In this document: piece after piece, positions 2,665-36,512 of the stretch
Position numbering within the stretch: the first letter of the stretch is position 1
Layout: each line of letters starts with the position of its first letter
DNA from: a virus
Taxonomy: Duplodnaviria; Heunggongvirae; Uroviricota; Caudoviricetes
DNA length: 38,578 bases
Virus record (IMG/VR): IMGVR_UViG_2529292720_000015
Direction: 5' to 3' (one strand)
The notes under the pieces: model-generated
What the model saw: the letters and a program-made list of their open reading frames with translations, nothing else
Database searches by the model: none
What the model was told of the DNA's origin: nothing
Made by a program: the position numbers and the translations under genes

Positions 2665-3017
2665 TACGCCTCCGATGTAACAGTCGTTATTCCATAGAGA
2701 GTGTCGATTTCAGCGGAAAACATGACACGTCGGGTCGTGGTATCCACCGTCGTATTGAAAGAGAGGATTGATTTAACGCCCTGCGTTTCGAGGATGCGCT
2801 TACGGATCGCCAGGTTGTAAGTTTCTGGTTTTTGCCTGCCCAGCACGGACTGGATCCACGGTGTTCCCTCTGTGGTATCAAGAAACCATTGCCCATACCA
2901 CAATTCGAATCGCGTTTTCACAGCCTGCGCTACGGCCTCAGGCGAGTTAATCAGCCAGGTGTCATCACCGCTGCCAAAGGTGTAATCGCCATCGGCGTCT
3001 TCACGTCTGTATCGCAT
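2664..3017 (-). CDS. baseplate protein (gpW/gp25-like position), putative
   Basis: 117-aa ORF with start/stop overlap to both neighbours in the baseplate cluster. Assigned by synteny only. Confidence 0.4.
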   Translation of the reverse strand: MRYRREDADGDYTFGSGDDTWLINSPEAVAQAVKTRFELWYGQWFLDTTEGTPWIQSVLGRQKPETYNLAIRKRILETQGVKSILSFNTTVDTTTRRVMFSAEIDTLYGITTVTSEA

Positions 3018-3769
3018 CAGTTTACCCCGTCGGTACTGCTTCCACCACGCTGAACACCACCATGAGTGTGTGTATCATCGATTGGCTTGCCATTAGCCTT
3101 CACGCTCCCCAAAAACTCAACAGCACCAGTGATTTTTGAAGCCACACCAGAAACCACAGACCCCACCATGCCCCCCATCCAGGTTAACAGGCCATGAATG
3201 GTTACTTTCTCAGAAAAATCAGCCAGAGGGGCAACCACATCAAGACCACCTGGAGCGACAATTTTAATTTTCCTGGTATCAGGATTAAGCTCAAAATAGG
3301 TGCTGCCGTCATCACTACGCAACTGTGTGGCACTGGTATTAATACCGCTAATCTTCCTTGCCTGCGACTGGGGACCGACAATACAAAACGCATCCGATAA
3401 ATCATGCATTCTGTCATCGACCGACTCCTGTATCCCGCCACTCTGCCACCAGAAATCAATACAACGATCGGCAAAAATCACCAAACATTCATCACCGGCT
3501 TTAACTGGGAACGTTAGCGTACATCCTCCGCCGCGCGGGAATACCACTGGCACATCCACCAGCAATGGGTAATTTTTGGTAATGCGGTTGCCGTCATTAT
3601 CCTTTTCAACCGAACGGATAGCAGGCTGCACAACTGCCGTCACCGCATCAGGATCGAATGACTGAATAATGCCAGGCAAGGCGACACGGATCTGGTTCTT
3701 TGTTGTTTCCCGCTCGGACTTGAATGTTTCGGCAAGGTCACCGCTACGAGTCTGGTCTGATATGGCCAT
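3017..3769 (-). CDS. baseplate assembly/spike protein (gpV-like), putative
   Basis: The ORF track gives 3017..3802, but that start is a TTG inside a terminator hairpin. The ATG at 3769..3767 is preceded by GGAG with 8-nt spacing, giving a 250-aa product beginning MAISDQ. Confidence 0.5.
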   Translation of the reverse strand: MAISDQTRSGDLAETFKSERETTKNQIRVALPGIIQSFDPDAVTAVVQPAIRSVEKDNDGNRITKNYPLLVDVPVVFPRGGGCTLTFPVKAGDECLVIFADRCIDFWWQSGGIQESVDDRMHDLSDAFCIVGPQSQARKISGINTSATQLRSDDGSTYFELNPDTRKIKIVAPGGLDVVAPLADFSEKVTIHGLLTWMGGMVGSVVSGVASKITGAVEFLGSVKANGKPIDDTHTHGGVQRGGSSTDGVN

Positions 3770-29853: not shown

Positions 29854-30483
29854 TCACTCAGGAATCTTAATCTTCCTCAATTCTTTATTTAGTTCACAGA
29901 TCTTCTTCTTAGACGGGAAAGTATCATACATCCAAAAACCAACAGTCTCTAAAACTATTGTCATAACCATATACACAAGATAATTTAAAAGGCCTTCATT
30001 TTGCCCTATGGAAATAATGCAGATAATAGAAAAAAGGATAAACAGCACAAAACACAGAAAGGAAAACAGACGACTAATAATAAATAAAAAACCTGAAAAA
30101 TTAACATTGATGAAAAACACTCCGTTATCTTTCTCTATATAATTCTGAAGCTTAATCACCTGATTTATATACTGTCTTTTTTCTAATCTATTGCAAATGT
30201 AAATAACATCACTTCGGTTATAAGAAGATTGCAATTTCAGCGCATCACGAATAATTTTATCATTTATTCTTTTTTCTATGGCACTCTTATCCTCCTTATC
30301 CAGATAACGTTCATACTTAACTAAATATAAAATTAACTTCTTGACATATTTAGGCTCTTTATACTTATAATTAAAAATGATCTTTCTTATCCAGACTCCC
30401 ATAACAATCAAACATGAAAAAATATATCCAGCTATTTTCTCCAGATGCTCTGTATGGTCAATCAAGTATTGGATCATATGCAT
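29854..30483 (-). CDS. hypothetical membrane protein (about 3 TM helices), AT-rich accessory gene
   Basis: 209-aa ORF, very low GC, on the strand opposite the flanking replication genes. It has hydrophobic helices at roughly residues 17-33, 134-158 and 169-190, with a Lys/Glu-rich soluble region between. Confidence 0.6.
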   Translation of the reverse strand: MHMIQYLIDHTEHLEKIAGYIFSCLIVMGVWIRKIIFNYKYKEPKYVKKLILYLVKYERYLDKEDKSAIEKRINDKIIRDALKLQSSYNRSDVIYICNRLEKRQYINQVIKLQNYIEKDNGVFFINVNFSGFLFIISRLFSFLCFVLFILFSIICIISIGQNEGLLNYLVYMVMTIVLETVGFWMYDTFPSKKKICELNKELRKIKIPE

Positions 30484-32593: not shown

Positions 32594-32598
32594 CTCCT

Positions 32599-32814
32599 AT
32601 GTCATTTAAATACCGGGACAATCCACTTTATTACAGGGCTGCAAGGGAGGCTTTGCGACTTGAACAATCCGGCGAATATGACCGGGCAGCGAAGGTCTGG
32701 GCAAAAGCCAACCGCGAATCACATCACGAACTGAATCAGGAATGGAGTGAACGCAGATCTGATTTTTGCCTGATGCAGAATATGCGTGAAAAGCGTAAGG
32801 CGGTCGAAGAATGA
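32599..32814 (+). CDS. small regulator-like protein (possibly ANR/PerC-like), hypothetical
   Basis: 71-aa ORF. The pattern YYRAAREALRLEQSGEYDRAAKVWAKA resembles small ANR-family proteins from memory; this is uncertain. Confidence 0.35.
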   Translation: MSFKYRDNPLYYRAAREALRLEQSGEYDRAAKVWAKANRESHHELNQEWSERRSDFCLMQNMREKRKAVEE

Positions 32815-33110
32815 TCGTTTACGTTGCCGGGCCGATGAGCGGTTACGAGCAATTTAACCGCCCGGCTTTTCATTCCGCAGCAAAGAGGCTAACGGACAAG
32901 GGATATGTTGTGCTTAACCCCGCAACTTTACCCAATGGTTTGACACAGGCTCAGTATATGGACATCTGCCTCGCAATGCTTCGCTGTGCCGATACGATTT
33001 ATATGCTCAAAGAGTGGGAGTACTCTGCTGGCGCACGTGCAGAAAACGCGTTGGCAGAGAAACTGGAATTGAATGTGCTTTTTGAAGAGTGGGATTCAGA
33101 TGGCCTATGA
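32811..33110 (+). CDS. DUF4406-like / nucleoside 2-deoxyribosyltransferase-like protein
   Basis: 99-aa ORF whose N-terminus MIVYVAGPMSG matches the VYxAGP motif of this family. ATGA overlap with the upstream gene. Confidence 0.55.
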   Translation: MIVYVAGPMSGYEQFNRPAFHSAAKRLTDKGYVVLNPATLPNGLTQAQYMDICLAMLRCADTIYMLKEWEYSAGARAENALAEKLELNVLFEEWDSDGL

Positions 33111-33369
33111 ACGTGAAAGCCTTATCGAAAAGCACCTCGTCGCTGAAGTGAAAAAAGCTGGCGGAGTGGCCTTTAAGTTTGTATCTCCCGGTCACCGCTC
33201 GGTACCGGATCGCATTGTCCTGCTACCAGGTGGTCGTATCGTTTTCGTTGAATGTAAATCTCCCGGCAAGCCACCACGGCCTGACCAATTGCGCGAACAT
33301 GAACGTCTGCGAAAACTGGGCTTTACCGTAGTGGTGCTGGATAGCAAGAACCTAGAGAGGATATTATAA
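33073..33369 (+). CDS. VRR-NUC domain nuclease
   Basis: 98-aa ORF with PD-(D/E)XK-like residues (PDRIVLLPGGRIVFVECKSPG), matching the VRR-NUC pattern. Usual position beside the SNF2 helicase in this replication module type. Confidence 0.75.
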   Translation: MCFLKSGIQMAYERESLIEKHLVAEVKKAGGVAFKFVSPGHRSVPDRIVLLPGGRIVFVECKSPGKPPRPDQLREHERLRKLGFTVVVLDSKNLERIL

Positions 33370-33373
33370 AAAT

Positions 33374-33943
33374 TTAGTCAATGCCTTTTTGATTGAACTT
33401 CTGATTCTCCAGTATGCTTTGCAGCTCAATATTATCATTTGCAGCGGTTTGTTTATGCTCATGATATTTTTCTTGCGTATAATTTCTTTCTCTTAGTTTC
33501 TGTGCGTAATTATTAGAAATAATATCATGACGATCTTGTAATACTTGTTCAAGTTGACTTTTAAAGTCCTCTATCTTTTCATTAGAAATAACATTTTTGT
33601 ACTTTTCAATATCACGGCGAAGTTCTTTTTCTTTCTTCTTATTAATGCTTAATAACTGTCGATTAACGCTACCTAAGGACCATTTAAACCCAATCGACTT
33701 TATCCAATGCGCCAGAAACATAGCGCAACTGGGAAGCATTAATAAAAGAAATGGCTTTATTGTATTTAAATCAGAACCAATATACGGAAAACAACCGTCC
33801 CACGAGGACACCAGTAATGTTAAAAAACCAGTGATGCCACCAGCAGCAACATTAGAAATCAGAGGGACTTTTTCGTAGCTATCAAGTTTAGAAGCGCTAC
33901 TCAAACGTCCCTCCTTTGACTGATCTTCCAGCACGAATGGCAT
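33374..33943 (-). CDS. hypothetical membrane protein (2 TM helices plus C-terminal coiled-coil), accessory cassette gene 3
   Basis: AT-rich ORF. The ATG at 33943 has no SD, whereas an alternative TTG at 33904 is preceded by AAGGAGG at 5-nt spacing and lies 2 nt after the upstream stop, giving about 176 aa. TM helices are GGITGFLTLLVSSW and FLLLMLPSCAMFLAHWI, followed by a Lys/Glu/Gln-rich predicted coiled coil. Confidence 0.6.
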   Translation of the reverse strand: MPFVLEDQSKEGRLSSASKLDSYEKVPLISNVAAGGITGFLTLLVSSWDGCFPYIGSDLNTIKPFLLLMLPSCAMFLAHWIKSIGFKWSLGSVNRQLLSINKKKEKELRRDIEKYKNVISNEKIEDFKSQLEQVLQDRHDIISNNYAQKLRERNYTQEKYHEHKQTAANDNIELQSILENQKFNQKGID

Positions 33944-34145
33944 TCATTGCAATTTTGTAAAATTCATCATCAGAAGAGACATCAACGACATCGCGACGGA
34001 CAACTCCTTCTGAGTCAACACATTCAAGAACAAGATGATGTTTAGGCATAAGCGCAAAGCGTAACCGGTCAAACCCCATCTTAAGAACCCAATATAGTAC
34101 GGGAAGCAGGCTAAAAAAAGCCAGCCAAAAAGCAAAAGCAATCAT
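33897..34145 (-). CDS. hypothetical small single-TM protein, accessory cassette gene 2
   Basis: 82-aa ORF with GGAGG 5 nt upstream of the ATG. N-terminal TM helix (IAFAFWLAFFSLLPVLYWVL) and an acidic soluble C-terminal part. Confidence 0.6.
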   Translation of the reverse strand: MIAFAFWLAFFSLLPVLYWVLKMGFDRLRFALMPKHHLVLECVDSEGVVRRDVVDVSSDDEFYKIAMNAIRAGRSVKGGTFE

Positions 34146-34168
34146 AGCCCCCTCCCCATGTGAATCTA

Positions 34169-35047
34169 CTATAAGATGCCGTGTACTTTAACAACTATGT
34201 ACGTTTTGTCCAGCGAATTCAAGTTCTCACGGACGAGCAAATAAACGCAGTAAGCATCACTAAAAACACCAGGTTCTCTTCCCGTACTAACACGTTGTAA
34301 GAACTCAGTATCTTCTATAGACACGCTGATTGTGTCATCGCCATAGTTGACTCGCCAGCCTGTGTTTTTATCCTTATGAATAGTCAAAAATGTGATTAGA
34401 GCCTCTTCAATCACCCTTTCAGACAAGGACTGCACTACAGGAACGCGCCTATATCTGAACGGTTCAATATTATCTTCGTGCACCTTAATCAGCTCAACCC
34501 CCTGTTGAGTTGAAATTTTAAGCGATTCGTATCCTTCCTTTTGCAAAGGATTATGAATTAACTTCGATAAGGATTTGCGTATGCTTGGTGAGGCAAGTAA
34601 AGGCCGGAAATATGACGGGGCTATAATTTCCTCACCATCATCCATAACTATTTTACAGTCTCCTTCCGCTGTTAAAGTCAACCGTTTTATTTGCCTACCA
34701 TTGATCTGACGAATTAAGTCAATGAGAGTATTTCCTGCTGCGAGTGCAGTTGTACCTCCAAGCCCAATAATGCTTAATATATTCAAATGGTCAAGTGGAT
34801 TTTGAATAACATCAATCAAATACTCAAATGAGCCTTCCTTAAAAGGCTCAACCTCAACATTAATACACTCACTAGTGCCATTGACAACCAAATTAACTTC
34901 TTTAAGCAAGTTGTTTAGTCCATTCAATGACTCAGTTAAAACATCCAAATCTATTTTATGATCTGCTAGTGCGGGACCATCATATTTAACAACTAATTTA
35001 TCAGTAATATTTTCTTCTTGCTGGACATCTGTATAAGCTGAGGTCAT
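34169..35047 (-). CDS. hypothetical soluble protein (292 aa), accessory cassette gene 1
   Basis: AT-rich ORF with AAGGAA 5 nt upstream of the ATG, on the strand opposite the replication genes. No Walker A, HEPN, PD-(D/E)XK or other catalytic motif was recognised. Confidence 0.65.
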   Translation of the reverse strand: MTSAYTDVQQEENITDKLVVKYDGPALADHKIDLDVLTESLNGLNNLLKEVNLVVNGTSECINVEVEPFKEGSFEYLIDVIQNPLDHLNILSIIGLGGTTALAAGNTLIDLIRQINGRQIKRLTLTAEGDCKIVMDDGEEIIAPSYFRPLLASPSIRKSLSKLIHNPLQKEGYESLKISTQQGVELIKVHEDNIEPFRYRRVPVVQSLSERVIEEALITFLTIHKDKNTGWRVNYGDDTISVSIEDTEFLQRVSTGREPGVFSDAYCVYLLVRENLNSLDKTYIVVKVHGIL

Positions 35048-35114
35048 AACTGTTCCTTTCGAAATAAATAATTAAGCTATTACTACATAAGTTCATTCAT
35101 GGAGATACAATACC

Positions 35115-36512
35115 ATGGACTATGCTATATTTTCACCTCACCCCTACCAAGATCTCATCATCAATCATCAAATCGACATTATGCGCTGCAACATCTGGGC
35201 AGGTATGGGAATGGGTAAAACCGTGGCAACGCTCACTGCGCTGGAAGATCTTTTTATGGCAGGGGCAGAAACACGCCCCGCACTGGTCCTCGCGCCGCTA
35301 CGTGTTGCAGCAAACACCTGGCCGGATGAAGCAGTGAAGTGGGGGCATTTGCGCAATATCGAGGTGCAGCCGATTGTTGGTAATGCCAAAGCGCGCTCTA
35401 CGGCGCTGGCGAACAGCAACGCAAGCGTGTTCACCATCAACTACGATAACCTTGTCTGGCTGGTTGAAGAATTGGGAGAACGATGGCCGTTCGGTATTGT
35501 CATTCCAGATGAAAGCACCCGGCTAAAATCCTTCCGGCTGCGAGGTGGTGGTAAGCGCGCGGCGGCACTGGGCAAAGTGGCGCATAAGTATGTCCGGCGC
35601 TGGATAAATCTCACCGGTACGCCAGCACCGAACGGCCTGGTAGATTTGTGGGGACAATCGTGGTTTGTGGACCAAGGGCAACGTCTCGGGCGCACTTACG
35701 GTGCGTTTACCTCACGCTGGTTCAACTCGATACAGTTTCCGGGACAGAGCTGGACTAAACTGGAGCCTTTTGCTCACTCACAGGGTGAAATACAGCGAGC
35801 ATTAGCCGATGTGACCCTCTCGCTAGATGCGGCCGACTGGTTCGATATCAAAGACCCCATCCATAACGTAATCCGCGTGGATATGCCGCCGAAGGCCCGT
35901 CAGCAGTATCGTGAAATGGAAAAGGAAATGTTCCTCGAGCTGAATGGCGAAGGCATCGAAGCACCGAACGCCGCGGCAAAGACACTGAAGTGTCTTCAAA
36001 TCGCCAGTGGCGCAGTATACACAGACGACACCGGAAGTTGGTCAGAACTGCATGACACCAAACTACAGGCGCTGGACAGCATACTGACCGAAGCAGCTGG
36101 CGCACCTGTGCTGGTTGCTTATCACTGGAAACACGATCTTGAACGCTTGCTTAAAGCATTCCCTCGCGGTCGTCACCTCGACCAGGATCCACAGACACTG
36201 CGCGACTGGAATTCCGGAAAGATTCCTGTTCTCTTTGCACACCCAGCCAGCGCGGGCCACGGCCTGAACATGCAAGACGGCGGAAATATACTGGTATTTT
36301 TCTCACACTGGTGGGACCTGGAGCAATATCAGCAAATTATTGAACGTATCGGCCCCACCAGGCAGATACAGGCCGGACACAATCGTCCGGTATTTATTCA
36401 CCACATTATTGCTGCCGACACTATGGACGAAATGGTGATGGAGCGGCGCAACTCAAAACGAACAGTGCAGGACATCCTGCTCGATGCCATGAAAAAGAGA
36501 GGTATAGCATGA
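35115..36512 (+). CDS. SNF2-family (DEAD/DEAH-like) helicase
   Basis: 465-aa ORF with Walker A (GMGMGKT) and a DExx-type motif (IPDEST), plus a C-terminal helicase domain. Confidence 0.8.
   Translation: MDYAIFSPHPYQDLIINHQIDIMRCNIWAGMGMGKTVATLTALEDLFMAGAETRPALVLAPLRVAANTWPDEAVKWGHLRNIEVQPIVGNAKARSTALANSNASVFTINYDNLVWLVEELGERWPFGIVIPDESTRLKSFRLRGGGKRAAALGKVAHKYVRRWINLTGTPAPNGLVDLWGQSWFVDQGQRLGRTYGAFTSRWFNSIQFPGQSWTKLEPFAHSQGEIQRALADVTLSLDAADWFDIKDPIHNVIRVDMPPKARQQYREMEKEMFLELNGEGIEAPNAAAKTLKCLQIASGAVYTDDTGSWSELHDTKLQALDSILTEAAGAPVLVAYHWKHDLERLLKAFPRGRHLDQDPQTLRDWNSGKIPVLFAHPASAGHGLNMQDGGNILVFFSHWWDLEQYQQIIERIGPTRQIQAGHNRPVFIHHIIAADTMDEMVMERRNSKRTVQDILLDAMKKRGIA

Follow-up and report, generated by a model that had tools for sequence, protein, structure and literature searches.

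A three-gene prophage cassette of Escherichia coli as a candidate form of the gp29/gp30 (PDC-S42) defence family

What does a prophage carry when three genes of foreign composition lie against the direction of its own replication module? This question is raised by positions 33374 to 35047 of IMG/VR record IMGVR_UViG_2529292720_000015, a 38,578-nucleotide (nt) stretch of Caudoviricetes DNA that we refer to as the window. Three minus-strand genes, here called A, B and C, form a cassette between a VRR-NUC nuclease gene and an SNF2 helicase gene. The original prediction, made from the sequence alone, had proposed an undescribed membrane-associated defence or exclusion system that could not be linked to any named one. 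Its defence reading, in the form of abortive infection, proved to be the best-supported one through the homology of protein A to gp29, a protein of the validated defence system of mycobacteriophage MichelleMyBell (MMB), and on this basis the cassette is best read as a three-gene form of the gp29/gp30 (PDC-S42) defence family. The label 'undescribed' had to be given up, because A is a member of PDC-S42 and NF053583 as well as a gp29 homolog. With a probability of roughly 0.6, we consider the cassette to be a horizontally mobile prophage moron that most likely protects the lysogen by abortive infection, along the lines of the A/B/C working model given below.

Protein A and its relationship to MichelleMyBell gp29

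Protein A matched the PADLOC PDC-S42 model PDLC05015 at E 9.7e-40, with residues 17-288 aligned to positions 5-286 of the 302-position profile, and scored 189.6 bits against NCBIfam NF053583 ('LAPAL motif-containing putative phage structural protein'; cutoff 60). It also matched phrog_3243 at 1e-99. Similarity to Pfam DUF7946 (PF25678) was confined to residues 19-81 and, at 22.3 bits, lay below the gathering threshold of 27; a precomputed PF25678 match is present in some close homologs of A. The LAPAL motif that gives NF053583 its name occurs in remote members and is not found in A, which has LTESL at the aligned position of the N-terminal helix. Searched against 1.84 billion representatives, the A family profile recovered 3619 clusters (50% identity) at E <= 1e-3. 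Nearly all of these matches are 280-320 residues long and align over their full length, and the A family, as judged from these alignments, is large and of a single architecture. A scan of species-representative genomes returned Pantoea and Photobacterium only, and the sole match to the family in the phage collection was PQ189332, whose depositors had tagged its A homolog 'MMB_gp29_gp30__gp29'.

The relationship to gp29 (310 residues; genome KF986246) was recovered by several comparisons. A profile built from 52 A-family sequences aligned with gp29 in hhalign at a probability of 98.7% (E 2.1e-16) over 268 columns, which is near full length; hmmsearch with the A family profile gave 71.6 bits, and BLASTP with A alone gave 26% identity over 310 columns (E 3e-12). 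In addition, gp29 matched PDLC05015 at 1.6e-16, and remote relatives of A matched PDC-S42 at 1e-85 to 1e-93. Since gp29 matches the A profile and shares PDLC05015 with A, PDC-S42, NF053583 and gp29 constitute one family. By these profile and pairwise alignments, A is remotely homologous, over its full length, to gp29, a component of the DefenseFinder system MMB_gp29_gp30.

A second mycobacteriophage, Xerxes (KU935726; locus L049, 4392-5487), encodes a gp31 that scores as MMB gp29 does (71.6 bits, with the same BLASTP alignment) and a gp32 equal to gp30 in length and overlap. These matches place the validated system in other cluster N phages as well.

The MMB gp29/gp30 system was reportedly described by Dedrick et al. 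in 2017. It consists of a toxic protein and a putative membrane protein and defends against lytic phages (PMC11856565). The system has been called 'typical of abortive infection systems' and reportedly permits adsorption and injection (PMC6426606), and it lowers the plating of phage Tweety by 4-5 orders of magnitude, an effect countered by Tweety gp54 (PMC8549241). The membrane protein gp30 has 67 residues and two transmembrane (TM) helices, and its gene overlaps that of gp29 by 41 nt. The A family and its defence role were already on record through a single validated actinophage system and a single PADLOC candidate; the defence by gp29/gp30 itself, known since 2017, has an obscure mechanism and has been treated as an actinobacterial curiosity. 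New are the link between PDC-S42, NF053583 and gp29, which are merged here into one family numbering about 3600 clusters (50% identity), the obligate partners B and C, the OB-like domain of A, and the E. coli version, in which the function of the family could be worked out with tractable genetics.

Library scans of the cassette proteins detected no Walker, HEPN, PD-(D/E)XK, TIR, nuclease or methyltransferase domain, in agreement with the motif inspection by eye in the original prediction. Two AlphaFold2 models of A were obtained, with a predicted local distance difference test score (pLDDT) of 74.8 and then, with 48 sequences, of 85.0. In both models, an N-terminal strand and a long helix are followed by a hydrophobic stretch at about residues 85-112, a beta-rich middle and a predicted C-terminal barrel at residues 205-292, and it is in this barrel that the best-conserved residues of the family (W231, R232, D246 and F249) would sit. 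Across the 52 members, G24, G72, W231 and F249 are invariant and R157 and D246 nearly so. A Foldseek search of the model against the PDB gave no match at E <= 0.001, and the A profile found nothing better than E 0.086 among PDB sequences. A cryptic TIR or nuclease fold, which had been suggested for this protein, was not found; the modelled barrel is OB-fold-like and nothing in the model resembles an enzyme. As A lacks a catalytic constellation, it is probably a binder or switch rather than an enzyme.

The hydrophobic stretch is the lowest-confidence part of the model (pLDDT 68-80). The most hydrophobic 19-residue window falls in this region in nearly all of the 52 members, and its Kyte-Doolittle (KD) value is at least 1.6 in 22 of them. 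We considered whether the stretch is more hydrophobic in A homologs that lack partners and rejected this idea (median KD 1.59 versus 1.54 in the clade with B and C; Mann-Whitney p = 0.17).

Gene organisation and the membrane proteins B and C

The cassette had been described as three tightly packed minus-strand open reading frames (ORFs) with good ribosome-binding sites, in which a soluble 292-residue protein is combined with small membrane proteins. The coordinates and the strong Shine-Dalgarno sequences read on the minus strand (Table 1) bear this out, as does hydropathy, with one TM helix in B and a hairpin in C. Gene B starts 23 nt past the stop of gene A, behind a strong Shine-Dalgarno sequence. 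The TTG start of gene C overlaps the stop of gene B by 8 nt, and the Shine-Dalgarno sequence of gene C lies inside gene B, an arrangement that implies translational coupling. For gene C, the TTG at 33904 is most likely the real start, giving 176 residues: it is preferred because AAGGAGGG stands 5 nt upstream, because the alternative ATG at 33943 has no Shine-Dalgarno sequence, and because PGAP and PHROG 15878 both have the 176-residue form.

The markedly lower GC content noted for the cassette was also confirmed (0.38 versus 0.54). Individual values are 0.387 for A, 0.426 for B and 0.345 for C, with 0.382 for the whole cassette, compared with 0.542 for the DNA polymerase gene and 0.535 for the helicase gene among the flanking replication genes. 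GC content at third codon positions is 0.30-0.35 in the cassette genes versus 0.57 in the flanking genes.

Hydropathy analysis of B revealed one clear TM helix at residues 2-22, and the positive-inside rule indicates that the soluble domain is probably cytoplasmic. B matched phrog_15510 at 2e-55, with homologs in Aeromonas, Photobacterium, Pantoea, Vibrio and Proteus-type loci. C has a clear TM helix at residues 13-33 and a weaker hydrophobic helix at 51-70, together forming a hairpin (13-70), and the same rule predicts an in/in topology with both termini of C in the cytoplasm. The tail of C (residues 77-176) contains 36% K/R/E/D and 21% Q/N and no proline at all; its charge and the lack of proline make a long charged helix likely. 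For this protein of 176-189 residues the original prediction had named two TM helices and a long coiled coil. The two helices stand, the second being the weaker, while the coiled coil is not established, as the heptad signal, at 5 of 8 a/d positions, is weak.

Searching with a C profile recovered only 24 clusters, from the same taxa as the A-B-C clade, and both B and C are conserved at the residue level across the loci that carry all three genes (the triad). The B and C profiles diverge too far to serve in pattern scans of viral contigs. Relative to gp29/gp30, B and C are new, previously unrecognised membrane partners. In all 27 loci in which A is at least 47% identical, B and then C follow directly after A in the same order; these loci come from E. 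coli, Salmonella, Klebsiella, Citrobacter, Pantoea, Aeromonas, Photobacterium, Proteus-type and Vibrio sequences. A-B-C is therefore an obligate three-gene unit in its own clade. From PADLOC naming, we take PDC-S42 to be a single-gene ('S' class) candidate derived from guilt by association. Remote members of the family look standalone, which fits that label, whereas the clade of the cassette is bound to three genes.

Other genes follow some of the remote A homologs. A remote standalone homolog (locus L039, 1717-2628) is followed on the same strand by a ClpP-like SDH protease / NfeD-type gene, and the genes after two further remote homologs (L035, 6918-7502; L044, 6968-7531) encode signal-peptide- or lipobox-like N-termini. 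These downstream genes may be alternative partners of A. A 231-residue product encoded after a 28%-identical homolog (P0035) was considered as a B+C fusion and rejected, as it is proline-rich and carries a C-terminal motif resembling a helix-turn-helix.

The presence of two small inner-membrane proteins raises the possibility of superinfection exclusion at entry, with B and C blocking DNA injection in the manner of Sie, Imm and Charlie gp32, and with A as an accessory. The module resides in prophages, some of its relatives adjoin cI, and cluster N phages are known to have exclusion systems based on membrane proteins (PMC6426606). We consider this improbable, because the homologous MMB system is reported to let adsorption and injection proceed and to act by abortive infection (PMC6426606), and because what the family conserves as its core is the cytosolic A rather than the membrane proteins.

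The roles could also be wired the other way round: A would be the toxic effector, coating single-stranded DNA (ssDNA) through its OB-fold or inserting into the membrane, and B and C would be antitoxin-like membrane proteins that restrain it until infection. This is doubtful, though it deserves attention. The conserved hydrophobic segment and the OB-like domain both lie within A, many remote members of the A family seem to be single-gene, which argues for effector activity in A itself, and gp29 is the protein described as toxic, with gp30 as the membrane protein (PMC11856565). Against it, the family has no conserved catalytic residues, its only invariant positions across the 52 sequences being the two glycines, W231 and F249 given above, and a pair of membrane proteins, of which one has a cytoplasmic tail of 100 residues, would be elaborate for a mere anchor.

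Mobility of the triad and the abortive-infection model

The triad occurs in at least seven unrelated genomic contexts (Table 1), and between versions of the cassette DNA similarity is limited to the three coding regions. Its presence both in tailed prophages and in a PM2-like element indicates cargo common to tailed and non-tailed virus lineages. The spread over Caudoviricetes prophages, a PM2-like Vinavirales element and chromosomal islands illustrates how defence cargo is shared. The Aeromonas element additionally carries a primase/D5_N gene and a Mob_Pre gene, and this locus has the appearance of a defence island borne by an integrative mobilisable element.

A homologs are also found just downstream of HTH_3+Peptidase_S24 repressor genes, on the same strand, in four loci (L030, L037, L038 and L044), with a 4-nt gene overlap in L038; three of these cI-adjacent homologs, the one in L038 among them, are remote and standalone. 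This position downstream of cI, shared with rexAB in lambda, argues that these relatives are expressed in lysogens.

Tight coupling of the genes, the reported toxicity of gp29 and the occurrence of the module on many kinds of mobile element would also be expected of an addiction (toxin-antitoxin-like) module that stabilises its prophage or island and has no anti-phage role. This explanation is more improbable still. The only relative that has been tested gives strong phage defence (PMC8549241), the locations in a baseplate operon and next to metH fit it poorly, and many toxin-antitoxin systems also serve as abortive-infection systems.

Returning to abortive infection, we infer a defence phenotype in E. 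coli from the A-gp29 homology, the obligate linkage of A, B and C, their mobility and hotspot location, and the cI-adjacent relatives. In the working model, A would be located at the inner membrane, where C, through its hairpin, and B, through its single TM helix, would join it and together take the place of gp30. The trigger would be an infection cue of phage origin, either a nucleic-acid intermediate or a protein, sensed through the OB-fold-like C-terminal domain of A. The complex of A, B and C, the presumed effector, would then keep the invading phage from completing its cycle by damaging the membrane or otherwise arresting the cell.

Comparison with MMB gp29/gp30 supports the outline of this model and also marks its differences. 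In both cases a cytosolic protein of about 300 residues is followed by a coupled gene for a small membrane protein, both are prophage cargo, and gp30 has two TM helices as does the N-terminal hairpin of C, a likeness of topology only; the mechanism is obscure for both. The cassette differs in having three genes versus two, in an A only 26% identical to gp29, in the 100-residue charged cytoplasmic tail that C adds, in the extra single-pass protein B, and in its hosts, which are Gammaproteobacteria versus Actinobacteria for MMB. Lambda RexAB and Sbash gp30/gp31 resemble the cassette in functional outline only, as a cytosolic sensor with one or more small membrane proteins encoded by a prophage; in addition, several relatives of A lie directly downstream of cI, as rexAB does. 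Abortive infection by membrane depolarisation has been proposed for systems of the RexAB/Sbash type (PMC6426596). They share no homology with the cassette: Pfam gave no match in A to DUF4747, the domain of the cytosolic protein in RexA/RexB-like exclusion, and the membrane partners RexB and Sbash gp31 each have four TM helices versus one in B and two in C. Kiwa (KwaA + KwaB) likewise combines a membrane protein with a cytosolic protein of about 300 residues without an enzymatic motif.

Several points weigh against the abortive-infection reading. The functional properties of gp29/gp30 used here, among them abortive-infection-type protection against heterotypic phages and toxicity of gp29 by itself, are drawn from secondary sources, and neither for the cassette nor for proteobacterial members did the literature on PDC-S42, DUF7946, the LAPAL motif and the three RefSeq accessions yield phenotype data. 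Profile-profile alignment of B and C with gp30 in hhalign gave probabilities below 1%. Remote A homologs, at 30% identity or below, lack a consistent small TM ORF downstream, and a membrane effector may not be general to the A family. On the minus strand of the window, the region upstream of A contains no promoter at the scan threshold and no convincing sigma-70 site.

A broader proposal, which we put forward tentatively and at rather low odds, is that the gp29/PDC-S42 family comprises widespread non-enzymatic OB-fold sensors of phage ssDNA or replication intermediates, coupled to interchangeable membrane modules (none, gp30, or B and C). If the OB-fold sensor reading is true, the E. coli triad would reveal the mechanism of the mycobacteriophage system and define B and C as a new two-protein membrane effector.

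The nuclease/helicase junction of the E. coli prophage

The window derives from a prophage adjoining yfhL in E. coli ETEC-2264 (100% identity), which is almost complete and of myovirus type. DNA similarity to the cassette-less phage vB_EcoM-606R2 ends at 33348 and restarts at 35135. Among 5426 complete E. coli genomes, 158 have the flanking genes, and 17 of those 158 carry the cassette at the junction. Any version of the cassette is present in 19 of the 5426 genomes, and two of these 19 copies are about 70% identical and located elsewhere on the chromosome. Alternative cargo at the junction consists of a Rha gene with two Arc genes, a Dcm methyltransferase gene, a DUF6338 gene, or one to two hypothetical genes.

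The low GC content and the presence in 17 of 158 flank-bearing genomes agree with the earlier view of the cassette as foreign, self-contained accessory cargo in a prophage hotspot, and comparison of related prophages identified the VRR-NUC/helicase junction as a variable hotspot with differing cargo. The accompanying assumption that the nuclease and helicase genes are normally adjacent did not hold, since some cargo lies between them in every relative listed; the two replication genes are neighbours parted by variable cargo. The stops of the nuclease gene and gene C are 4 nt apart, and a terminator cannot fit between these convergent genes.

The location inside the replication module, together with the OB-like domain of A, would suit an OB-fold ssDNA-binding accessory of phage replication, and the name of NF053583 and the Pantoea triad between baseplate hub and spike genes would suit a structural protein. 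A part in the phage's own biology is nonetheless the least probable of the explanations considered here, and very improbable. The cassette is missing from 141 of the 158 E. coli prophages of the same type, it has a strand opposite to its neighbours and a foreign base composition, it is also found in islands outside phages and in a virus of an unrelated realm, and two membrane proteins always accompany A. For a structural role in particular, only the Pantoea copy lies among baseplate genes, and the other contexts are integrase/Xis, cI-downstream, restriction-modification island and metH. The copy in the Pantoea baseplate operon may explain the 'structural' name of NF053583, which the other contexts suggest to be misleading.

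Table 1. Features of the cassette and its flanks (window positions) and genomic contexts of the triad (positions in the locus named)
Feature	Position	Strand	Description	Basis or accession
Gene A	34169-35047	-	292 residues, soluble, gp29-like/PDC-S42/NF053583 family	ORF and profile matches; WP_000199789.1
Gene B	33897-34145	-	82 residues, predicted N-terminal TM helix and small domain	ORF, hydropathy; WP_000559954.1
Gene C	33374-33904	-	176 residues from TTG; predicted membrane hairpin and charged tail	WP_001388886.1 / WP_000093032.1
Alternative gene C ORF	33374-33943	-	189 residues from ATG at 33943	
Shine-Dalgarno, gene A	35053-35057	-	AGGAA, 5 nt before ATG	Read from sequence
Shine-Dalgarno, gene B	34148-34157	-	GGGGAGGGGG, 2 nt before ATG	Read from sequence
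Shine-Dalgarno, gene C	33909-33916	-	AAGGAGGG, 5 nt before TTG 33904, within the end of gene B	
A C-terminal domain	34172-34435	-	About residues 205-292; predicted OB-fold-like barrel, strand-strand-strand-helix-strand-strand	
A Gly/Ala-rich hydrophobic segment	34712-34795	-	About residues 85-112; borderline TM-like, conserved family-wide	
Left flank	33100-33369	+	VRR-NUC / PDDEXK nuclease gene, convergent with gene C	PGAP
Right flank	35115-36512	+	SNF2/DEAD-box helicase gene, divergent from gene A, 67-bp spacer	PGAP
Variable hotspot segment	33349-35134		No DNA similarity to cassette-less relatives of the host prophage	
Triad context 1			Nuclease/helicase junction, E. coli prophage (window)	
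Triad context 2			Between tyrosine integrase and HTH_17 Xis-like gene, Klebsiella-type prophages	
Triad context 3	L010/L028 5977-7625		Pantoea ananatis prophage, same strand in tail operon, between baseplate-hub-like gene and spike and Baseplate_J genes	
Triad context 4			Directly downstream of HTH_3+Peptidase_S24 (cI-type) repressor, Proteus-type prophage	
Triad context 5	L003 1-5364		Aeromonas metagenome contig, beside type I restriction-modification locus with Fic and Mrr_N genes	
Triad context 6			Adjoining metH, Photobacterium	
Triad context 7	L045 1276-2880		Adjoining integrase, 14-kb PM2-like temperate Vibrio phage 10N.286.45.F8_PE001 (Vinavirales, Varidnaviria)	PQ189332.1

At the left flank, the longest ORF of the VRR-NUC gene starts at 33073, and the PGAP start at 33100 leaves an 11-nt overlap with the DUF4406 gene. 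The DNA polymerase and VRR-NUC genes enclose a second variable spot, at about 32594-33100 of the window (corresponding to 2810-3571 of vB_EcoM-606R2, locus L001). This spot contains an ANR-family regulator and DUF4406 in the window and a TIR-like domain protein in vB_EcoM-606R2; in IMG/VR locus L017 it encodes a 253-residue protein, without the DUF4406 gene.

A further antisense ORF of the window (29854-30483, minus strand) lies between the DUF2815 and DNA polymerase genes, with a GC content of 0.295 and a 209-residue product that contains several hydrophobic helices. It matched phrog_10579 at 2e-109, whereas Pfam, PADLOC and NCBIfam gave no match. In contrast to the cassette, this ORF is also present in vB_EcoM-606R2 (L001, 6-635) and in strain JNEC-KY208.

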